Origin: an uncultured delta proteobacterium
Lineage (GTDB): Bacteria > Myxococcota_A > Polyangia > Polyangiales > Polyangiaceae
Direction of reading: 5' to 3'
Length of the DNA: 64,000 nt
Assembly (NCBI GenBank): GCA_963716725.1
Contig: CAVQUB010000015.1
Coordinates: 384,001-448,000, forward strand
Shown: positions 14,380 to 28,416 of the stretch, one piece after another
Layout of the letters: each line of letters begins with the position of its first letter
How positions within the stretch are numbered: the stretch's first letter is position 1
The notes under the pieces: model-generated
The model's database searches: none
What the model saw: the letters and a program-made list of their open reading frames with translations, nothing else
What the model was told of the DNA's origin: nothing
Position numbers and translations under genes: made by a program

Positions 14380-14459
14380 GGGTTGCTCGACGGCCTTTCT
14401 ACCGCTCGGGGCCCGGACGTTCCAGCTTCTCGACGCGAGGGAGCGATGCGCGCAGTCAG

Positions 14460-14531
14460 TGGGCGGGACAGGGCTTGAACCTGCGACATCCGGCTTGTAA
14501 GGCCAGCGCTCTACCGCTGAGCTACCCGCCC
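14460..14531 (-). tRNA. tRNA-Val (anticodon TAC)
   Basis: Minus strand GGGCGGGTAGCTCAGCGGTAGAGCGCTGGCCTTACAAGCCGGATGTCGCAGGTTCAAGCCCTGTCCCGCCCA folds as a full cloverleaf. CCA is not encoded. Confidence 0.95.
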
Positions 14532-14592
14532 TGGGTGAGCAGTATCTAGCGGGGAAATGCATCCTGAGCAAGGCAGTGTAAAATGCCGGCTC

Positions 14593-17058
14593 ATGCGCGC
14601 TCTCTCGGCTCTGCCCGCCATTGCCCTGCTCTTGCTCCTGTCGCGCTGCGGCTCCGACGACGACGGGGGCGGGGGCGGCAAGCACAAGGTCGATGCGGGC
14701 GCCGACGCGGCGGACGACGCCGCGGATGCCGCCGACGATCAGGACGCCGGACCGAGCGTGCCGGACGCTTTTGCGCGCTACTGCGCCGGCAAGTCGTGGC
14801 GAGACACCTTCGCCGCGGCGACCATCGCCGCTTCGAGTGGGGAGTACCTCGGGGTGCTCAACACCGATTTTGCCGCGGGCATCCAAGAGGCGACCAAGCT
14901 CGTCCCCGATCACCCCTTCGCGGCCAAGGCCATTCGCGTGGGCTTCGGCAAGGGCACGGGCAAGGCGCGCCTCCGTTTGATGCGCACCTTTGGGCGCAGC
15001 TACCCCGCGTCCTTCGCCGACTCGAGTTGGCCCGACTACTCGGAGCCCGTCGATCTGATGCCGCCCGTCGAGGTCGATGTCGAGGTCACGGACGCGAGCA
15101 AAGACGCTTGGCTCGAGGTTCCGATCCCGGAGACGCTGCTCCTGCCCACCGAGCACTACATGCTCGTCTACGAGCACATCGGCGCCGAACCGCGCTTGGC
15201 GGTCGAGAAGGTCGCCGCCGGAGACATGGCGCGATCGCTGGTCTTCGATCCAAGCCAGCCGAGCTCGCCCCCCACCGGCTTCGACGGCAACTACCGGCTG
15301 CGGCTGGTCGGCGATCACTTCTGTCAGTGGACCGACGCGGACCGCTGGTTTTTGCGCGACGACAAGGCCTTCGGAGACACCATCGGGAGCTGGGCGGCCT
15401 GGGCCGATCTCGACGGCGACGGCCACGACGACGCGGTCTTCACCACGGGCCAAGGTCCGACCTGGTTCAAAGGCGACGGAAAGGGCAGCTTTGCCGCGGT
15501 GAGCGCCGCGTTTGCCCCCGACGCGCCGAAAGCGAACTTCTTGGTGTTCGGCGATCTGGACAACGACGGCGACTTGGACGCGTTTGCGTCGCAGTACGTG
15601 CAGACCGACGGCGACGGTGACGGCGTCGGCGTCGACAAAGACTGCAACGACAAGGACGACAAGGTGAAGCCCGGGGCGGCGGAGGTGCCCAACGACGGTA
15701 TCGACAATGACTGCGACGGGAAGGTCGATGACGGCACCGATACCGCCGACGCGGACGCTGACGGAGTCAGCATTGCTGCCGGCGACTGCGACGACACCAA
15801 GGCCGAAACCAAGCCCAGCGCGGCGGAGCTGCTCGACGGACTCGACAATGACTGCGACGGCACCACCGACGAGGACTTCTTCCCGAAGCTCTTGCTGAAC
15901 GACGGCGCCGGAACGCTGAGCTGGAGCCCCAGCCCCGACGTCGAGACCCTCGGGCCGTCAAGCGCGGCGTCGCTCGGCGACGGCAACGCCGACGGGCTGC
16001 TCGACCTGTACGCGGGCTATTGGCTGGTGCACTACCCGAGCTCTCCGACGGTGCCGAGCCGCTATTACGAAGGGCAGGCGGGCGGCAAGATGATCGACGC
16101 TTCGGTCAAGGCGGGCATCACCCAAACACCGTGGCGCCCGGCCTACGGCGTGCTCTGGACCGACTGGAACAACGACTCGTTGATGGACGTGTACGTCTCG
16201 AACTACCAGCTGGCCGCCAATCTGCTCTGGAAGAACTCGGGCGCAGGGAAGTTCCAGGAGGTCGCCGCGAGCGTGGGTGCGGCGGCGGACGACGTGTCCA
16301 TGTTCGGTTACACCGGCGGTCACAGCTTCGGCAGCGACGTGGGCGACATCGACAACGACGGGGACATGGACTTGTACGTTCCGAACATCTCGCATCCGCG
16401 CGTGCAGCCCGGCAGCGATCCGAGCATGTTGCTGGTGAACGGCGGCGCGCCGAACTTCAGCTTCGAGAACAAACGCCGAGACTATGGGCTCATTTACGAC
16501 GAGGGTGACGTCGAGAGCTCGTTTGCTGACTTCGACAACGACGGCGACCTGGATCTGCTGGTGATCTCCACCTATCCGAGCCACTACCCGCGCCTGTATC
16601 GCAACGACCTGCCCAAGGGCTTCACCGACGTGACCTACGAGGCCCACGCGCAGCTGCACCAGGCGCAGACCGGGCTCTGGGCCGACGTGGACGAGGACGG
16701 TGACCTCGATCTGCTCCTGCTCTCGCCGGGTCCGGGTCCGCGCATGCTGCTGCTTCGCAACAAGGGCACTCCGGGAAATCACTTCATCGAGCTCGACCTG
16801 CGCGGCACCACCTCGAACCGGTCCGCCATCGGAGCCCGCGTCAGCGTGACCTCCGGCGGCGTCACGCGCATGCGCGAGATCCAGTCGCAGTCCCGGCACC
16901 CGGGCTCGCGCTGGGTGCACATCGGTCTCGGGTCGAGCATGAGCATCGACAAGATCGAGGTGCGCTGGCCCAACGGGGCCAAGGAGACCATCACGGGCGC
17001 TGCCGCCGACGCGCGCTGGCGCATCGTCGAAGGCAGCGGCAAGGCGACGGCGCCCTGA
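14593..17058 (+). CDS. CRTAC1/ASPIC-UnbV family protein with FG-GAP and MopE-like Ca/metal-binding repeats
   Basis: Multiple DxDxDGDxD repeats, DGIDNDCDG repeats, and C-terminal SNRSAIGARV...VHIGLG...IEVRWP. Confidence 0.85.
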   Translation: MRALSALPAIALLLLLSRCGSDDDGGGGGKHKVDAGADAADDAADAADDQDAGPSVPDAFARYCAGKSWRDTFAAATIAASSGEYLGVLNTDFAAGIQEATKLVPDHPFAAKAIRVGFGKGTGKARLRLMRTFGRSYPASFADSSWPDYSEPVDLMPPVEVDVEVTDASKDAWLEVPIPETLLLPTEHYMLVYEHIGAEPRLAVEKVAAGDMARSLVFDPSQPSSPPTGFDGNYRLRLVGDHFCQWTDADRWFLRDDKAFGDTIGSWAAWADLDGDGHDDAVFTTGQGPTWFKGDGKGSFAAVSAAFAPDAPKANFLVFGDLDNDGDLDAFASQYVQTDGDGDGVGVDKDCNDKDDKVKPGAAEVPNDGIDNDCDGKVDDGTDTADADADGVSIAAGDCDDTKAETKPSAAELLDGLDNDCDGTTDEDFFPKLLLNDGAGTLSWSPSPDVETLGPSSAASLGDGNADGLLDLYAGYWLVHYPSSPTVPSRYYEGQAGGKMIDASVKAGITQTPWRPAYGVLWTDWNNDSLMDVYVSNYQLAANLLWKNSGAGKFQEVAASVGAAADDVSMFGYTGGHSFGSDVGDIDNDGDMDLYVPNISHPRVQPGSDPSMLLVNGGAPNFSFENKRRDYGLIYDEGDVESSFADFDNDGDLDLLVISTYPSHYPRLYRNDLPKGFTDVTYEAHAQLHQAQTGLWADVDEDGDLDLLLLSPGPGPRMLLLRNKGTPGNHFIELDLRGTTSNRSAIGARVSVTSGGVTRMREIQSQSRHPGSRWVHIGLGSSMSIDKIEVRWPNGAKETITGAAADARWRIVEGSGKATAP

Positions 17059-18883: not shown

Positions 18884-20287
18884 TCAGACGGTGATCACGT
18901 CGCCCCGATCCGGACTGTGCACGTTGCGAAAGCCCTTCTCTCCCAGGAGATCCGAGAGCACGCGCATCGGGACCGGATCGCCGTGCACCAGAATCATGTG
19001 CTCGAGCTCGCCGCGCTTGCGGATCTCGAGCGCGTAGTCCACGAGGTCGCGCTGATCGGCGTGGGCCGAGAAGCCGTTCAGGACGTGCACCTCGGCGTGA
19101 ACGGGCTGCATGGTGCCGAAGATCTTCACCTCCGAGCGTCGCTCGACCAGCCGGCGTCCCAGGGTGTGCGGCGCCTGGTAGCCCACGATCAGCACCGCGT
19201 TCTTCGAGCTGCTGATGCTGCCCTTGAGGTGGTGGAGGATGCGGCCGGCCTCGCACATGCCGCTGGCGCTGATCACGATCGAGGGCTCGCTGGACGAGCT
19301 GACCGCTTTGCTGTCTTCCTTGTCCGAGATGTAGTGCAGGTCGTCGAACTCGAAGGGCGAGTTGCGGCCCTGCAACAGCTCGAGGGCCTCTTCGTCCAGA
19401 CACTCCGGGTGGAGCTTGAACACGTCGGTGATCTTCACCGTCAGGGGTGAGTCGACGTAGATGGGCATGGGCGGCAGCCGCCCGGCTTCCCGCAGCCCTT
19501 TGAAGGCGTAGACGATCTCCTGGGCACGCTCGAGGGCAAACGAGGGAATGACGACCTTTCCGCCGCGGTCGTAGACTTTCTTCACGATCGCCGCCAACTC
19601 GTCGTCCATCTGCTCGATGGGTTTGTGCAGCCGGTCGCCGTAGGTGCTCTCGGTGATCAGCACCTGGGCGCCCTCGGGGACCTCGGGATCCCGAAGGATG
19701 GGCATGCGCCGCCGGCCGAGATCGCCAGTGAACACCAGTCGCTTCTTCTCGCCGCCCTCGTCGATGTCCAGCACGGTGATGGCGCTGCCGAGCACGTGCC
19801 CGGCGTCGAAGAAGGTCAGCATCACGCCGTCGGCGATGGGCAGCTTGCGGTGGTAGGGCATGGCCACCATGCGCGAGAGCACCTCGAGCACGTCGCGCTC
19901 GTCGTAGAGCGGCTCGACGCGCTCCATGTCGCTGTCGCCGCGGTCGATCAGCTTGTTGATGAACTTGGCGTCGCTCTGCTGGATCATCGCCGCGTCGATC
20001 AACATCGCCGCGCACAGATCGCGGGTGGCGCTGGTCGTGTAGATCGGTCCATCGAAGCCCTGCTTGACCAAGGCGGGCAGGGCGCCTGAGTGATCGATGT
20101 GGGCGTGGCTCAACACCACCACGTCGATCTTGGTGGGATCGACGCCGAGGTGTTTGTTCCTCTCGATGGTCTCCCGTCGCGTCCCCTGCCACAGCCCGCA
20201 GTCGAGGAGGATGGTCGCGTGTTTGGTCCGGATCAGGTGCTTCGAACCGGTGACGGTCTTGGCCGCGCCGACGAACTCGATCTCCAT
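18884..20287 (-). CDS. MBL-fold beta-CASP metallo-hydrolase (RNA-specificity domain, Ysh1-like)
   Basis: GAAKTVTGS, LSHAHIDHSG, AGHVLGS, ESTYGDRLH, SASGMCEAGRILHH and FSAHAD. Confidence 0.93.
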   Translation of the reverse strand: MEIEFVGAAKTVTGSKHLIRTKHATILLDCGLWQGTRRETIERNKHLGVDPTKIDVVVLSHAHIDHSGALPALVKQGFDGPIYTTSATRDLCAAMLIDAAMIQQSDAKFINKLIDRGDSDMERVEPLYDERDVLEVLSRMVAMPYHRKLPIADGVMLTFFDAGHVLGSAITVLDIDEGGEKKRLVFTGDLGRRRMPILRDPEVPEGAQVLITESTYGDRLHKPIEQMDDELAAIVKKVYDRGGKVVIPSFALERAQEIVYAFKGLREAGRLPPMPIYVDSPLTVKITDVFKLHPECLDEEALELLQGRNSPFEFDDLHYISDKEDSKAVSSSSEPSIVISASGMCEAGRILHHLKGSISSSKNAVLIVGYQAPHTLGRRLVERRSEVKIFGTMQPVHAEVHVLNGFSAHADQRDLVDYALEIRKRGELEHMILVHGDPVPMRVLSDLLGEKGFRNVHSPDRGDVITV

Positions 20288-20297
20288 GCGACCGAGG

Positions 20298-21053
20298 CTA
20301 GTTGGCCGACGCCGCGGCTACCAGTATGGACTTCAGCGCGGCGAAGTTCTCGGCCTTGCTCAGGTCGTAGGTGGTCAGGTTGAAGGCTGCGATGGGGCGA
20401 TTGTCGGCGTCGAGCACGATCACGTCGCGGTACTCGACGACCCAGTCATTCCAGACGTCCTCAGCCAGCGTGTCTTGCAGCCAGGGCAAGGTACGCCCGG
20501 CCGTGATGATGGAGTTCCCGGATTCGAGCCCGATGCCGTTGACGCCCAGGATCTGGATCTTCTTCTTGGTCGTGGTGCCCGCGAGCTCTTTCTGCATCGT
20601 GTCGAGGTAGCCAAACTGGCTACCGCAATAGCCTCAAGTGGAGTGCCCGAAGTACCAGGCAGACACCTGACCCAGGTAGTCTCGGGGCGAGACCTTCTTC
20701 TTGTACAGGCTCGACGCAGGGTTTTCGTCCACCAGGGAGAAGTCGGGAACGACCGCCGCCACACCACCGTCGCCGCCGTCGGCGCTGTCCGGCGCCGAAT
20801 CGACGCTGGAGTCGGCGACGGCGTCGGAGCCGGAGTCGGCGGGCGCATCGGGCGCATCGGGCGCCGCGTCGCCGCTCGAACCGCCGCCGGAGGGCGTGCC
20901 GCCACTGCCGCTCGTGCCCGCGACGCCGCCTGCGCCCGCCATGCTGGCGAAACCGCCGCCGCCGCTCGAGCTGGCGTTTCGGTCGAGGCGTTCGTCGTGT
21001 CCGCAAGCCATGGCGATGCCGGCAATGAGCAAGAGCGTGGTCGTGAGCTTCAT
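20298..21053 (-). CDS. Thioredoxin/peroxiredoxin-fold lipoprotein, predicted selenoprotein (Sec at TGA 20634-20636, UxxC motif)
   Basis: ORF 20634..21062 and ORF 20298..20597 are in the same frame and separated only by TGA. Read-through gives PDFSLVDEN...VSAWYFGHST-U-GYC-GSQFGYL..MQKEL...IQILGVN...LPWLQD. Lipobox AMAC. Confidence 0.85.
20606..20624 (-). promoter_or_regulatory. Candidate bacterial SECIS hairpin
   Basis: On the coding strand, GGTAGCCA-GTT-TGGCTACC (perfect 8-bp stem, G-first loop) begins 9 nt after the TGA. Confidence 0.75.
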
Positions 21054-21058
21054 CGTCT

Positions 21059-21598
21059 TCAATCCGGTCCGTAGTCCACGCAGCCGTCGCCGTCACCGCC
21101 GGCGCCGTTGACCTGGCAGCCCGATCCCTGGGGCACGGGGCAAGCGATCTCGGGGCAGGCGACGCCCAGGTCGCAGCCCTTGGCGGTCCACTCGGCCTTC
21201 AGCGATTTGAGCTCCTGAAGCGGCGTGGTGTTGGTGGGATTGACGTAGGTGCTGCAGGGGCACGAAAGCTCGGTGTCGATGAGCTCGGTGCACTGGATGG
21301 CGTTGATCATCGCGTTGCACCCCTTGGCCTGGGTGAGATAGGCCGCGTACTTCGCGTCGAGCTCGGCGCATCCGGTGCCGCCAGTCGCGCCGGTGCCGGT
21401 GCCGCCAGTCGCGCCGGTGCCGGTGCCGCCAGTCGCGCCGGTGCCAGTGCCGCCAGTCGCGCCGGTGCCGGTGCCTCCGGTGCCTCCGGACGTGCTGCCT
21501 CCCGTTGCGGAGCCACCGGTGCCTCCGGTGCCGTCTTTCTCGGACTCGCCCCCGCAGGCGACGGCCAAGGCCAGGGTTGCCAGGAAGCGAAGTCTCAC
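21059..21598 (-). CDS. Hypothetical lipoprotein with GGTGTGAT repeats and Cys-rich C-terminus
   Basis: Lipobox LAVAC, 24-bp tandem repeats at about 21370-21480, and a Cys-rich C-terminal domain. Confidence 0.72.
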   Translation of the reverse strand: MRLRFLATLALAVACGGESEKDGTGGTGGSATGGSTSGGTGGTGTGATGGTGTGATGGTGTGATGGTGTGATGGTGCAELDAKYAAYLTQAKGCNAMINAIQCTELIDTELSCPCSTYVNPTNTTPLQELKSLKAEWTAKGCDLGVACPEIACPVPQGSGCQVNGAGGDGDGCVDYGPD

Positions 21599-21694
21599 GA
21601 ACCCATCATAGCTCGGGCCCGAGCAGCTTTCCTGCGGGATTTTTCCTGTTGATCGCAGGGGGGCCTGTGGTAAACACCGCGGGCTTACCGCTTC

Positions 21695-21770
<76 letters not shown>

Positions 21771-22325: not shown

Positions 22326-22694
22326 GTGGCAAGCATCGACGACCTTCTGGACGAGATGCGAAGCAACCCCGGTGGGGTTCGGTTTGCCGACGCTTGCAAG
22401 GTAGTGACGAGCTATTTCGGCGAACCGAGGCAGGGCGGAACGAGCCACAAGGTCTGGAAGATGCATTGGGCAGGCGACCCTCGAGTCAACATGCAGCGCG
22501 CCGAATCTGGCAAAGCCAAAGCATACCAAGTTCGCCAAGCCGTCCAGGCCATCGACAGGCTGATTGCTGATCGTGCAGCCAGAGCCGCCCAGGTAGACGA
22601 ACACGATGAGAGGAACTTCGAAACGAAGCAGACCCAAGCGAGAAGAACCAAGGCGAAGGCCAAGACCAGAAGTACCAAGAAACGCCGGAGATAG
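22326..22694 (+). CDS. hicA: HicA-family toxin with a basic C-terminal extension
   Basis: NPGGVRFADACKV..YFGEPRQGGTSHKVWK..WAGDPRVN.Q...GKAKAYQVRQ, directly upstream of hicB. Confidence 0.85.
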   Translation: MASIDDLLDEMRSNPGGVRFADACKVVTSYFGEPRQGGTSHKVWKMHWAGDPRVNMQRAESGKAKAYQVRQAVQAIDRLIADRAARAAQVDEHDERNFETKQTQARRTKAKAKTRSTKKRRR

Positions 22695-22697
22695 GCC

Positions 22698-23036
22698 ATG
22701 TCCAAGAAAGTGCCTTTGAGCAAGAAATACACGTACCGCGTGGTGTGGTCCGAGGAAGACTCCGAGTTCGTTGGACTCTGCGGCGAGTTTCCAAGTCTGA
22801 GCTGGCTCGCAGCGTCTCCCGATGCTGCACTGAAAGGGATCATGAAGATTGTGGCAGATGTCGTGGCCGAAATGGCGGCGAGCGATGAGATGCCGCCGGA
22901 ACCCATCGCCACGCGTAACTACAGCGGCGAGTTCAAGCTTCGGGTCCCGCCGCTGTTGCACCGTGCCCTCGTGATGGAGGCCGCCGAAAACAACGTCTCT
23001 CTCAACCGGCTCGTGAACGCGAAGCTAGCAACGTGA
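22698..23036 (+). CDS. hicB: HicB-family antitoxin (C-terminal ribbon-helix-helix)
   Basis: YTYRVVWSEEDSEFVGLCGEFPSLSWLA...YSGEFKLRVPPLLHRAL..EAAENNVSLNRLVNAKL. Confidence 0.9.
   Translation: MSKKVPLSKKYTYRVVWSEEDSEFVGLCGEFPSLSWLAASPDAALKGIMKIVADVVAEMAASDEMPPEPIATRNYSGEFKLRVPPLLHRALVMEAAENNVSLNRLVNAKLAT
22968..23025 (+). repeat. Direct repeat copy 1 (3' end of hicB)
   Basis: 58 bp, 53/58 identical to 31938..31995 by manual alignment. Confidence 0.9.
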
Positions 23037-23942: not shown

Positions 23943-25667
23943 TCACAGCTGCGGACGCCAGGTGGCCAAGCCTTGCAATACCAAGACATCGACGTCGGAA
24001 CCGAACACGGTGTCGGCGTCCAGGGCGATGTTGAAGTGCCGCGACGGCGAGTACCAAACCGCCATGCCCACCAGGTGCTCGACAAATGCGCTGTCCGCCG
24101 CGGTGTAGCGCGTCACGGCCGGACGGTACCGCGCCGACAGGTCGAGCTTGCGATCGAGCAACTCCAGCCCCGGGCTGAGGGAGACCCCGACGTTGGTCAG
24201 CGCGGTGCTGCGCGCACCCGAGGCCCCGGCATCGACCCGCAGTGTGCCGACGATGTCGATCAGTCGCAGATGCGCGTAACCGCCGATGACGTCGGAATCC
24301 GTGCTCTGAGTGCGCGCGGCGTTCGCGCCAACGGACGCAGAAAGCTGGTCCAGCCGCACTCCCACCTCGCCACTGCCGTGCAGCGTCGCATCGCTGCCAA
24401 GACAAGCACTTGCAGCAGCCGCCGTGGGCCCGGAGACACACAACCATTCGGGCGGTAAGAAACTCGCCAGCCAATTCGAGCGCTCGGGGCGCTGCAAGCC
24501 TCCGCGCGCGGCGAACTCGAGGACGCCCGCGCGCACCGCTGCATCCGCACCCACGGAACTGAGCTCCGTAGTCTCCGCGGCCCAGGGATTGTCCGCGTCA
24601 AAGAACGACACCTCGGCGTGCGCGCCGAAGCGACCAAAGCCCGGCAGCAGGTCCAGGCTGGCGTTGACCCGACGTTCGTCGAGATTGCCCTCGAAGCGCG
24701 AAGCGTGTCCGCCGAGGATCAGCCGTGGGCGCCACTCTGCCTCGAGGTCTTCGAACGCGAACTCACCGCCGAAGCGCGCCGTGGCGGAGGGAACACCCGA
24801 GAGCGGCTCGGGGACCGCGCCACCGAAGGCGCTCACGGAGAGGCCGCCAGCCAGCGGTGCGCGCAGCTTCACGCCATCTAGGTTTCCCAGAAAGCTCGAC
24901 GCTTGGCGCAGGCGGCCGATACTTCCGAGGAACGAGCGTTCGCGCCCATAGGCCGCCTCTAGCCGCCGCACACGCAGGGCGGGGCGCGCGTCGTCCGCGC
25001 GGCGGTCCGAGAGATTGGGCGCGATCCAGGTCTGGCCGCTCACGTCGACGTCGATGGCGAAAGGAGCGGACACAAAGGGCTCGAAGTGCAACTGGCTGCG
25101 CAACTCCGCACGCCCGATCCCTGTTCCACGGTCACCGTTCGCGATGACGCCGTAGCCGTACGCGGAGAAGGTCACGCGGTTCCGACTCTCGTCTTGGATC
25201 AGACCCAGCGGCACCGGTTTGGGCGTCTGGTCGTCGGCTGGACGGCGCGCGTCCGACCACAAGCCTTGGTACGTCGCGACGCTCGGGGGCTTGGGCATGC
25301 GCTCAACTGCCGGTGCCTCCCGCCCGAGTTCGACGTTGGCCTTGCCCTTCGCACCGACGTCTAGGCTTGCGTTGCCAAGCGGCAGCACGGCGAAGGAAGC
25401 CGTCACGGCGATGACTTCGTAGTCGCTCCCACCAAATTGCACACTGTCGCCCACGTTCAGACCTTCGTCGCTTCCTGGGCTGACGTAGATTTTGCCGTCG
25501 GCCACATCCAGCACGGTGATCTTGAGAGTGACTCGCTTGCCGCTTTCGGACTTCTTGTCGACAGCCTTGTCCTTCCCATTGGCAGGCCGCTTCTTGGGCG
25601 CGGCGTCCACCGAGTTCGCCAGTGCCAGAAAGCCCAGCACGATACCAAAGCAGCGCCACGTTCTCAT
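23943..25667 (-). CDS. Putative outer-membrane beta-barrel protein with N-terminal periplasmic domain
   Basis: Signal peptide, about 400 C-terminal residues of alternating amphipathic beta-strands, and terminal strand LQGLATWRPQL. ATGA overlap with the upstream decaheme gene. Confidence 0.65.
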   Translation of the reverse strand: MRTWRCFGIVLGFLALANSVDAAPKKRPANGKDKAVDKKSESGKRVTLKITVLDVADGKIYVSPGSDEGLNVGDSVQFGGSDYEVIAVTASFAVLPLGNASLDVGAKGKANVELGREAPAVERMPKPPSVATYQGLWSDARRPADDQTPKPVPLGLIQDESRNRVTFSAYGYGVIANGDRGTGIGRAELRSQLHFEPFVSAPFAIDVDVSGQTWIAPNLSDRRADDARPALRVRRLEAAYGRERSFLGSIGRLRQASSFLGNLDGVKLRAPLAGGLSVSAFGGAVPEPLSGVPSATARFGGEFAFEDLEAEWRPRLILGGHASRFEGNLDERRVNASLDLLPGFGRFGAHAEVSFFDADNPWAAETTELSSVGADAAVRAGVLEFAARGGLQRPERSNWLASFLPPEWLCVSGPTAAAASACLGSDATLHGSGEVGVRLDQLSASVGANAARTQSTDSDVIGGYAHLRLIDIVGTLRVDAGASGARSTALTNVGVSLSPGLELLDRKLDLSARYRPAVTRYTAADSAFVEHLVGMAVWYSPSRHFNIALDADTVFGSDVDVLVLQGLATWRPQL

Positions 25668-26623
25668 CGCGCGCGTCCCCCGCGATGGCAGTGCACGCAG
25701 CGCTCGCGCACCGGCCCCAAGCGCTGATGCTGGCGGGCGATGCGCACTGGGTTGTGGTTGTGGCAACCCGTGCAGCGCACCAAGCGCGGCGCCTCCAGCG
25801 CGACATGGCAATCGCCGCACTCGAATCCGCGGTGCTTTCCGGTCCGGATCGGAAAGGAAAGTTCATGGCTGCGCGCGGCCAACGGACTCTGACTGAGGCG
25901 GAACTGAAAGCTTGCGGGAACGAAGGCCGGCGTCCACGCGGTGGCTCGATGGCATGTGGCACACTCTTTCGGAAACGGAGGCTGCCCCGCCGCGCCGACA
26001 TGCAATGGGTGGATGTCCGTGCGGCGATAGTCCGAAACGTGACATGCGTAGCAATCCGCGGGTGCGCCGGAAAACTGTCCCTGCGCGCTGCGCTGGTGGC
26101 ACTCGCTACAATCTACGAGCGCGTGCATGCCCGCGAGCGGAAGCCGCGTTCGCCGGTGTAGTTCGATAGCGCGCACGTCTCGAAAGCTGCGTGAGGAGTG
26201 ACAGCGATCGCAGCCTTGGCCGAGGCGACGGCGGTGCGAGTCTTCGTGACAGCCCACACATTCGCGAGTGATCTTGCGATCGCCAGTGTGGCACGCCGTG
26301 CACGCGGTTTGTCGGTGGCCTCCGCTCAGCGGAAACCCAGTGACCGAGTGGTCGAAGCCGCCGCCGCTGCTGCCGCTGGGCGTCAGCCGCCAACTGCTCG
26401 GTGTGTGGCAAGTGGAGCAATCCAGGCCCTTGGTGATCGACGCGCGGTGTGGGCTTTTCGCCTTCGCCTTCGGAGCCGCTGGCCTGGGCTCCTTGTTGGC
26501 CCCCGCTGGAGCGGAGCTGCCTCTTGCCGGGGTTTTCCCGGGCTTGTCGCCCGGCGCCGCGAGGGCGATTGCGGCGGCCAAGAACGACGCCAAGACCAGC
26601 AGGGACGACGGCGATCGGGTCAT
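25664..26623 (-). CDS. Decaheme c-type cytochrome
   Basis: Signal peptide, 10 CXXCH motifs (counted) and FDH..TGFPL.G.H repeats. Confidence 0.92.
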   Translation of the reverse strand: MTRSPSSLLVLASFLAAAIALAAPGDKPGKTPARGSSAPAGANKEPRPAAPKAKAKSPHRASITKGLDCSTCHTPSSWRLTPSGSSGGGFDHSVTGFPLSGGHRQTACTACHTGDRKITRECVGCHEDSHRRRLGQGCDRCHSSRSFRDVRAIELHRRTRLPLAGMHALVDCSECHQRSAQGQFSGAPADCYACHVSDYRRTDIHPLHVGAAGQPPFPKECATCHRATAWTPAFVPASFQFRLSQSPLAARSHELSFPIRTGKHRGFECGDCHVALEAPRLVRCTGCHNHNPVRIARQHQRLGPVRERCVHCHRGGRAR

Positions 26624-28416
26624 GGTTCGGCCTCGGCGTGCGGATCGGCGTGGCAGTCCTTGCAGGCGGAGTAGCCAAGGCGGTAGCGGCGAGCGCGCTT
26701 GCCCCCGCCGAGATCACGTTCCGCGTGGCACTTGGCGCAGTCTGAGCCCGCGTGACGTCCCTCCAAAGGGAATCCAGCGAGCGCGTCGTGACGGAACGCC
26801 TTGATCTTGAACCGGCTGGTGTCGTGACACACGGCACAACCCTTGACGGGTTTGCTCAGGCGGAACTGACCGAGATGCACGTCTTGGTGGCAGCCCGAGC
26901 ATGCGCGCGGCGTGCCACGGTAGCTACCGCCCTTGCCGTGTTTGCGATCGGCGGCACTTGGCGTGTGGCAGCGCGCGCAGGGGGCGCCCGCGTGGGCTCC
27001 CGTCAACGGCCAGCTTCGATGGTCGATTTTCGGGGTATGCCAGTCCAGCGGTGAGTGGCAGGCGGAGCAGCCGTCCTTCTTCATCTCTTTGGCGAACTGG
27101 CTGCCGTGCGGATTGTCGTGGCAAGACTCGCAGCGCGCGGACGTGCCACGCCAATCGAGTCGCTGGCCGCCCTTGGGATGTTTGTCGTGACAGCTGCCAC
27201 ACGGAACGGCAGCGTGGTGCCCCTCCAAAGGGAACTTCGTCGTGGCATGCGCCGGCACGCCGAAACTCGCCGGGCGGAAACCGCTGTCCGTATGGCACGC
27301 GGCGCACTCGCCGCCGTCGCGCTTGGCAAACGCGCCGAAGTGCACATCGTTGTGGCACTCGCGGCACTTGTCGAACTTCAGCTCGCGAAAGCGTTGTTGC
27401 GCCGGCTTGGTGGTCACGTGGCAGCCTTTGCAATCGGTCTCGAGGTGTTGGCCGCGGAGCTGAAACGGCGTCTTCTCGTGGGAATCAAGCCCGATCTTCC
27501 TGGATAGGCCAAGCCAGCGAATGCTGGCGTGGCAGCGCCCGCAGCTCTTGCCAAAGTCCGCTTCGTGAATGGGTTTGTGGCAGCTGACGCAGGCACGCCC
27601 CTTGGAAGGCGCCGTGTAGATCCCGCGATCGTGACAGCTACCGCAGCCAACCCGCGCATGTCCGTTGGCCAAGCTCAGCCCGGGGTGCGCTCCGGCTTTC
27701 ATCTGGATCTGCCGCCAGTTGTTCTCGTTGTGGCAGTTGGTGCACTCCTTCGAGAACCGACCCCCATGGGGATCCTTGTGGCACGAGGTGCAGCCGCCGA
27801 AATCCAGTCCCGCATAGCGAGGCGGCGAACCGTGGCAGTTGCCACACTCCGCCTTCGCGTGCGCACCGCGCAACGGGAACCTCGACTGTGCGTGGTTGAA
27901 ACTCTTGAGATTGACCTGTTTCCAGTTCGACTCGTTGTGACAGCCGAGGCAGTTTGTGCCAAAGCGAGTCTTGTGGGGATCCTTGTGGCAGCCAGTGCAC
28001 GCGGTCGCCGCGCCGATCCAGCTGCGGCTCTTGTGGCATTGGTTACACTTGGCCTTGCCGTGCTCCCCGCGCAGGGGCCAACCAGTCTGCCCGTGGTCAA
28101 AACCACTGGGGTTGAATCGCACCATGGCGAAGCCGCGCCCACGGTGGTCGGAATGGCATTTGGCGCAGGGTCCGGAGAACGCCCGCGTGTGCATGCCTTG
28201 ACCTGTAACGTTGCCGTGGCAGCTGTTGCAGAGCCCGTTCGACGTTCCACGCCCGGACGTGTGGCAGCGTCCGCAGTTCCCATCGCCTTCCAAGTCCGCA
28301 TGTGCGGCTGCCAGGGGTCCCGGTGCCATCAACTGTGCGCGCGCTCCGCCCGTCAGGCAGACCAGCGCGACCAGCGCGACCAGCGCGCGTAGGCTACGGC
28401 GCCACAGTCGGTGCAT
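26620..28416 (-). CDS. Large multiheme c-type cytochrome (23 CXXCH)
   Basis: Signal peptide (ARA-Q), 23 CXXCH motifs (counted) in tri-heme repeats, ATGA overlap with the next gene. Confidence 0.93.
   Translation of the reverse strand: MHRLWRRSLRALVALVALVCLTGGARAQLMAPGPLAAAHADLEGDGNCGRCHTSGRGTSNGLCNSCHGNVTGQGMHTRAFSGPCAKCHSDHRGRGFAMVRFNPSGFDHGQTGWPLRGEHGKAKCNQCHKSRSWIGAATACTGCHKDPHKTRFGTNCLGCHNESNWKQVNLKSFNHAQSRFPLRGAHAKAECGNCHGSPPRYAGLDFGGCTSCHKDPHGGRFSKECTNCHNENNWRQIQMKAGAHPGLSLANGHARVGCGSCHDRGIYTAPSKGRACVSCHKPIHEADFGKSCGRCHASIRWLGLSRKIGLDSHEKTPFQLRGQHLETDCKGCHVTTKPAQQRFRELKFDKCRECHNDVHFGAFAKRDGGECAACHTDSGFRPASFGVPAHATTKFPLEGHHAAVPCGSCHDKHPKGGQRLDWRGTSARCESCHDNPHGSQFAKEMKKDGCSACHSPLDWHTPKIDHRSWPLTGAHAGAPCARCHTPSAADRKHGKGGSYRGTPRACSGCHQDVHLGQFRLSKPVKGCAVCHDTSRFKIKAFRHDALAGFPLEGRHAGSDCAKCHAERDLGGGKRARRYRLGYSACKDCHADPHAEAEP

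Follow-up and report, generated by a model that had tools for sequence, protein, structure and literature searches.

The minus strand of the window (the whole 64,000-nt stretch of contig CAVQUB010000015.1 that was analysed) carries a frame of 251 codons that runs from an ATG at 21053 to a TAG at 20300..20298. Its sole internal stop is a TGA at 20636..20634, codon 140, in the context W-Y-F-G-H-S-T-TGA-G-Y-C-G. The first-pass annotation had stated that the frame stays open to 20298 and that the TGA sits at the first Cys of a C-x-x-C motif; both statements were exact, with no other internal stop between 21053 and 20298 and the motif context H-S-T-U-G-Y-C. When the TGA is read as selenocysteine (Sec, U), the product has 251 residues including U140 and C143, while the open reading frame (ORF) listing under translation table 11 cuts the gene into a 142-aa ORF (21062..20634) and a 99-aa ORF (20597..20298). 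Judged from the sequence, 20298..21053 (minus strand) is predicted to be a real gene, in which the in-frame TGA codes for Sec and whose product is an exported, lipid-anchored enzyme with a thioredoxin fold.

The predicted protein begins with a lipoprotein-type signal peptide (21003..21053), assigned by sequence reading. Its N-terminus, MKLTTTLLLIAGIAMAC followed by GHDE, contains a hydrophobic stretch and then I-A-M-A-C17, with the putative lipobox Cys17 at 21005..21003; this ending fits the lipobox pattern. A Cys at the signal end is kept in 9 close relatives, in the forms LAAAC-G, LGAAC-G and LALAC-S. Residues 18-99 (20757..21002) form a Gly/Ser/Ala/Asp-rich low-complexity tether, which lies outside the NF053656 match and differs in both length and sequence among close relatives. 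Residues 100-251 (20301..20756) form the thioredoxin-fold domain, assigned from the NF053656 match at residues 102-247, the AlphaFold2 (AF2) model and Foldseek. Within this domain, UGA codon 140 (20634..20636), the predicted first redox residue of U-G-Y-C, precedes the first residue of helix 1, and Cys143 (20625..20627), its putative resolving partner in U-x-x-C, occupies the invariant column C44 of a 38-sequence alignment (A4). A SECIS-type hairpin, GGUAGCCA-GUU-UGGCUACC in the mRNA, lies at 20606..20624 on the same strand.

Upstream of the selenoprotein gene is a gene for a 179-aa lipoprotein (21059..21598, minus strand) with a Gly/Thr-rich linker, made of a (GGTGTGAT)-type repeat, and a Cys-rich C-terminal domain. 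This lipoprotein could not be assigned to a family in Pfam or NCBIfam. The TGA stop of its gene and the ATG at 21053 are 5 nt apart, and the two genes are probably co-transcribed. In the longer ORF 21733..21059 the first 45 codons are spurious, because they overlap a tRNA-Asp gene (GTC, 21695-21769, plus strand); a tRNA-Val gene (TAC) is found at 14459-14531 (minus strand). Downstream, at 18884-20287 (minus strand), is a gene for a beta-CASP metallo-beta-lactamase nuclease. Its assignment as Cas14 was rejected, since it scores 405 bits with the type VII Cas14 model of NCBIfam, far below the cut-off of 800, and the product is a general beta-CASP RNase relative. The upstream lipoprotein and the downstream nuclease were syntenic in only 5 of the 36 loci searched, all of the same genus, and a Pfam search of 125 long open frames, taken from 31 loci of more distant members, gave no recurring partner; neighbours there were unrelated (DUF3160, DSBA, Usp, PFOR, FAD oxidase, kinases and others). 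Because conservation of the neighbourhood ends at the genus, the substrate cannot be guessed from it. Elsewhere in the window, a HicB-family antitoxin gene (22698-23036, plus strand) is preceded by an unassigned 122-aa ORF (22326-22694) which may be the HicB toxin partner, two adjacent multihaem c-type cytochrome genes with cytochrome c7, c3 and MtrC-like domains lie at 25664-28416 (minus strand), and an 833-aa protein with FG-GAP repeats, MopE metal-binding motifs and an ASPIC/UnbV domain is encoded at 14557-17058 (plus strand).

The read-through protein matched NCBIfam NF053656, "TUGYCR motif thioredoxin fold (seleno)protein" (redoxin_TUGYCR), with an E value of 4.8e-66 and 221.2 bits (cut-off 100). 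The match spanned model positions 1-146 of 146, and in a profile search of the whole genome this locus scored 214.9 bits with one TGA. The window gene shares with the family the T-U-G-Y-C motif, the Sec/Cys alternation at one column and the thioredoxin fold. It differs from the motif in the model's name in that it reads H-S-T-U-G-Y-C-G, with Gly in place of Arg after the motif Cys, a position where members show S, R, G or V. It also carries a lipoprotein signal and a long tether, whereas other members are fused to other domains. A Pfam scan of the read-through protein gave no Redoxin, AhpC-TSA or Thioredoxin_8 match at E ≤1 and nothing near threshold, the best relevant match being SCO1/SenC (E 0.12). 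Because the Pfam redoxin models fail at this level, placement in the ResA/TlpA group rests on the fold and on weak profile hits.

The TGA was looked for in independent sequence data, as the first-pass annotation had advised. Logan contigs from three studies, one from a biofilter (X1) and two from wastewater (X4 and X9), cover 20634-20636 and are identical to the window there. They differ from it at seven other positions of a 1001-nt stretch; with 3-7 differences, X4 and X9 come from other strains, and X1 may be the source sample itself. A run from an RNA library (X19) gave a single 152-nt contig covering 20254-20403, which stops short of the TGA and does not demonstrate transcription. The TGA could conceivably be a miscalled or misassembled TGC or TGT, the source genome being a 7.9-Mb draft of 35 contigs and 84% complete. 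Yet the contigs of the three studies agree with the window at this codon, and the TGA is also found in all 8 other close relatives, which leaves an error with practically no probability.

The distribution of the TGA was then followed through the family. Among 61 related genomes, including the source genome, the family was over cut-off in 9, and all 9 places had exactly one in-frame TGA; within the genus, 5 of the other 6 genomes carry it. When 401 genomes were sampled evenly across the phylum, 50 had the family over cut-off, and the 64 over-cut-off places listed had one TGA in 59 cases and none in five. Three of these five (L070, L153 and L156) have TGC, hence Cys, at the TGA column, and the other two (L154 and L155), embedded in frames of about 860-890 aa, have Ala and Ser where the two redox residues would be. 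Cys forms were also obtained by protein search, with HATCGYC in P0002 and P0003 and RSSCGYC in P0004. The pairing of Cys with TGA that the first-pass annotation had suggested checking in homologues was therefore observed at this column. Four further proteins (P0005-7 and P0009) have W there, which probably reflects a TGA translated by another table. A species-wide scan with one genome per species gave 185 relatives, of which the best 80 were taken and 78 scored, two being at contig ends; the TGA was present in 78/78 scored loci. These relatives belong to Polyangiaceae metagenome-assembled genomes (MAGs), other Myxococcota including the cultured Nannocystis exedens DSM 71 and N. punicea FL3, Eisenbacteria, Gemmatimonadota, Planctomycetota, Krumholzibacteriota and Latescibacterota, and the closest among those listed are Polyangiaceae MAGs at 83% identity.

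Some variant arrangements were seen in the family. Two Sec paralogues stand in tandem at locus L051 (G101:C106), the ORF P0008 lies between two TGAs and suggests a two-domain form, and L065 is an in-frame fusion of a family member to six MopE repeats. In another genome, a T4 deiodinase-like gene (PF00837; L068:1836-3236, plus strand) lies beside a family member; the T4 deiodinase-like family is known to include selenoproteins.

If the TGA were a true stop, the locus would be a pseudogene, or would encode two small proteins, a lipoprotein stub of 139 aa and a cytoplasmic protein of 99 aa. The two ORFs of the table 11 listing are in line with this, and truncated N-terminal pieces do occur among public gene calls: a protein search with residues 100-251 returned 20 fragments of 138-159 aa, each covering 24-26% of the query, one of which (P0010) is the window's own product. 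These fragments agree with the first-pass statement that gene callers split the gene. One point needs correcting: curated resources do cover this selenoprotein family, as NF053656. A true stop is hard to reconcile with a TGA that keeps to a single column in 59/64 and 78/78 copies and in several phyla with both halves of the protein conserved, with Cys substituting for it in homologues, with the covarying hairpin directly after it, and with one thioredoxin fold modelled across it at a pLDDT of 97.6; we regard this explanation as extremely improbable. A reassigned genetic code was ruled out as well, because TGA is otherwise a normal stop and ends 7/7 neighbouring ORFs. Recoding of the TGA to Sec is the reading followed below.

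The first-pass annotation had also described a perfect hairpin 9 nt after the TGA with a G opening the loop, and this was read as claimed at 20624..20606 (minus strand): GGTAGCCA-GTT-TGGCTACC, with a perfect 8-bp stem and a 3-nt loop starting with G. The minimum-energy fold has this same hairpin at its centre. The folding energy of the 71-nt stretch was not significant against 200 shuffles (z = -1.0; 30/200 as good), and perfect 8-bp hairpins with loops of 3-5 nt occur 5 times in the window, compared with a mean of 9.6 in 20 Markov-1 simulations. Since such hairpins are not rare and the folding energy is unremarkable, chance considerations alone settle nothing. What goes beyond chance is the placement directly after a TGA at the C-x-x-C position together with compensatory conservation in relatives.

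In 9 close relatives, the window copy included, the six core pairs were formed in 54/54 cells, and double changes were present in 4/8 pairs. For a wider set, 37 loci were scanned; L064, L069 and L071 gave no motif match, L031 (below cut-off) and L070 (Cys form) were left out, and L051 gave two copies, resulting in an alignment of 33 TGA members (A3). A core 6-bp stem and a loop A-G-U-U-Y were found in this alignment, the pairs being formed in 31, 31, 33, 33, 33 and 33 of 33 members, respectively, while the two outer pairs of the window's 8-bp stem were formed in only 7/33 and 22/33. Compensatory changes affected 5/8 pairs (14 cells), which was matched by 0/500 shuffles, and 84.5% of cells were paired, compared with 21-46% when the partner columns were slid. 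The claim of a SECIS-type stem-loop 3' of the UGA thus gained support from covariation across the 33 members. The hairpin encodes the helix-1 peptide [S/R/G][S/G/N]-Q-F-G-[Y/H/L], and the paired changes swap amino acids: AGC..UAC (S..Y) against GGC..CAC (G..H), AAC..GGU-UAC (N..Y), and AGU..GAC (G to D). Since the compensatory changes alter amino acids, it is the RNA pairing that selection keeps.

In the species-wide loci, all 6 core pairs were present in 73/78 and the loop AGUUY in 78/78, two figures that are biased upward, the scan pattern being the peptide encoded by the hairpin itself. The stem and AGUUY loop past the UGA are common to Myxococcota, Eisenbacteria, Gemmatimonadota, Planctomycetota, Krumholzibacteriota and Latescibacterota. 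Of the 6 core pairs, the three Cys forms (L070, L153 and L156) retain just 4, 3 and 2. The more distant homologue L031, which lies below cut-off and has U-G-F-C, carries another hairpin, GCGUCCA-GGU-UGGACGC, 18 nt past its UGA. Rfam at gathering thresholds gave only two tRNAs and no SECIS family in the whole window, and with permissive settings the 141 nt around the TGA yielded just a chance miRNA-hairpin match (E 2.3), again with no SECIS family; for a hairpin of 19 nt, the missing SECIS match carries little weight. Compared with the SECIS of the E. coli fdhF type, the candidate element is likewise a hairpin within the coding region shortly past the UGA. Its apical loop contains G and U and starts 16-17 nt past the UGA, a spacing like that of fdhF. 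It differs in having a short perfect stem without a bulged U and a loop A-G-U-U-Y, GUU in the window copy.

The genome was searched for the Sec machinery with profiles, as the first-pass annotation had proposed for selA, selB, selC and selD, and all four were found. selA scored 467 bits, selB 280.7 bits (over its cut-off), tRNA-Sec 70.3 bits with anticodon TCA, and selD 302 bits. The tRNA-Sec gene adjoins selB, and selA, selB and tRNA-Sec (L001, L002 and L014) are located within about 12 kb on one contig (C32:262008-273859). The selD gene (L010, C6:227368-228291) has an in-frame TGA of its own at GGG-U-ARK, so that the selenophosphate synthetase would itself be a selenoprotein in the source organism; two candidate hairpins lie past its UGA, one with an 8-bp stem and a GUC loop.

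A different possibility is that near-cognate decoding or a shortage of selenium leads mainly to Cys or Trp at the UGA, and that the working enzyme has a C-x-x-C site. The family does have Cys forms, which are presumably active. Nevertheless, the genome has the complete Sec machinery, with a selD that itself requires Sec decoding, and the SECIS-type hairpin is retained in the TGA forms only; we consider Cys or Trp read-through very improbable. In the preferred reading, decoding as Sec, the locus is one gene: we hold it highly probable that UGA140 is recoded to Sec and that the product is an exported lipoprotein oxidoreductase with a ResA/DsbE/TlpA-like domain and a regular member of NF053656. 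In everything that could be examined in the sequence, from the family match to the hairpin and the decoding genes, it looks like an NF053656 member and a bacterial selenoprotein gene.

To model the fold, residues 100-251 were submitted to AF2 with the 38-sequence alignment A4, with Sec entered as Cys. The model had a pLDDT of 97.6 and a pTM of 0.92 and consists of a single thioredoxin fold across the TGA position, in which the Sec immediately precedes the helix 42-59 (model numbering) and the Cys is in the first turn of the helix. The best match in the PDB by Foldseek was ResA (1su9; E 4.4e-9, TM 0.82), followed by DsbE (3gl3), other TlpA-like reductases and pneumococcal Etrx1/2, and then by SCO1 and AhpE; the probability was 1.00 for the top matches. 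Profile searches against the PDB gave weak hits to DsbE (E 0.008), GPx7 (E 0.013) and ResA (E 0.018). Together with the full-model NF053656 match, the ResA-like fold upheld the earlier assignment as a U-x-x-C thioredoxin-fold protein.

With ResA, DsbE (CcmG) and TlpA (1su9, 3gl3 and 4txo), the modelled domain has the fold in common (TM 0.73-0.82), including the redox pair at the N-terminus of helix 1, and these proteins are membrane- or lipid-tethered outside the cytoplasm, like the predicted window product. It differs from them in that the identity is only 13-20%, their Pfam models fail, Sec takes the place of the first Cys, and the window gene showed no link to cytochrome c maturation genes in the neighbourhoods examined. 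The residue before the first redox residue is Trp in ResA/DsbE/TlpA and Thr in the window protein. The pneumococcal Etrx1/Etrx2 (4hqs, 4hqz and 2yp6) are surface-exposed, lipoprotein-anchored thioredoxin-fold reductases of similar fold, but belong to Firmicutes and have a Cys-only active site, compared with U-x-x-C here. Etrx1/Etrx2 partner with methionine sulfoxide reductase (Msr); no Msr gene was seen among the selenoprotein neighbours in the loci examined.

From the model and these comparisons, the product is likely an extracytoplasmic selenol/thiol oxidoreductase. Its task as a selenoprotein could instead be another one: peroxide turnover as a peroxidase of the Prx/GPx kind, or copper handling in the manner of SCO1 or TlpA, with metallochaperones as its targets. 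Such a role is in keeping with the Foldseek matches to SCO1 (2ggt and 4wbj), AhpE (1xxu) and the TlpA-ScoI complex (4txo), with the weak GPx7 and Pfam SCO1/SenC hits, and with the MopE fusion of L065. On the other hand, ResA and DsbE are the best structural matches, the motif is U-x-x-C and neither the C-x-x-x-C of SCO1 nor the T-x-x-C of peroxiredoxins, and there is no conserved neighbour suggesting copper or peroxide. We therefore judge a peroxidase or copper role to be unlikely, though with an appreciable chance of being correct, and take thiol-disulfide exchange as the preferred role.

A mechanism can be proposed on this basis. UGA140 in the mRNA would be recoded to Sec, with SelB carrying Sec-tRNA(Sec) binding the hairpin 9 nt downstream and delivering Sec to the ribosome, as expected from the bacterial Sec mechanism. 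The lipoprotein signal would export the product, which would be lipidated at Cys17, and the flexible tether of about 80 residues would keep the ResA/DsbE/TlpA-like domain in an extracytoplasmic position. Helix 1 bears the active site U140-G-Y-C143 at its N-terminus; this site would most likely cycle between the selenol/thiol and selenenylsulfide states, which would make the protein a thiol-disulfide oxidoreductase whose substrates are envelope or secreted proteins. Re-reduction could run via a DsbD/CcdA-type membrane transporter; one DsbD-type (DsbD_TM) transporter gene is present in the genome.

The selenoprotein nature of this family is already recorded in a curated NCBI model, and the gene is an ordinary member of it. 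In the literature search, no paper on the NF053656 family was found and the term 'TUGYCR' was absent. The preprint by Haft (10.1101/2022.07.06.499078) explains how such models enter PGAP, and the part of it that was available does not describe the NF053656 family. A table in a 2026 review of prokaryotic selenoproteomes (PMC13188914) gives UxxC redoxin families, namely cd02966 thiol-disulfide isomerase-like, Prx-like thiol:disulfide oxidoreductase and PF08534, and the accessible portion of the review text contains no 'NF053' accession. The Sargasso Sea study (PMC1088965) likewise names a 'thiol-disulfide isomerase-like' UxxC family in the section available. As described in these two sources, the earlier families resemble the window gene in having UxxC on a TlpA/redoxin-type fold and in being predicted from genomics, a likeness of descriptions.

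Beyond the preferred reading, we entertain with considerable doubt, as rather improbable, that the hairpin constrains this protein more than the protein's own function does, that gene and SECIS form a cassette exchanged between phyla, and that the enzyme is a selenol reductase or isomerase for Cys-rich secreted lipoproteins. If this were true, gene and SECIS would travel between phyla together, and the substrates would be proteins such as the Cys-rich lipoprotein encoded upstream or the MopE repeats fused in L065.

In conclusion, the gene at 20298..21053 is predicted to encode a regular NF053656 selenoprotein, and its biology is ordinary for a Sec-using myxobacterium; since the curated NCBI model already captures the family, it represents no new kind of biology. 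The case demonstrates that a genuine selenoprotein, split in two by ordinary gene callers, can be found by reading raw sequence by eye. The very uniform SECIS, with its paired amino-acid changes in helix 1, shows cleanly how an RNA structure can shape a protein sequence. The family is widespread, being found in 50 of the 401 genomes sampled from the phylum and in several other phyla, and since cultured Nannocystis strains carry members of it, experiments on these selenoproteins are feasible.
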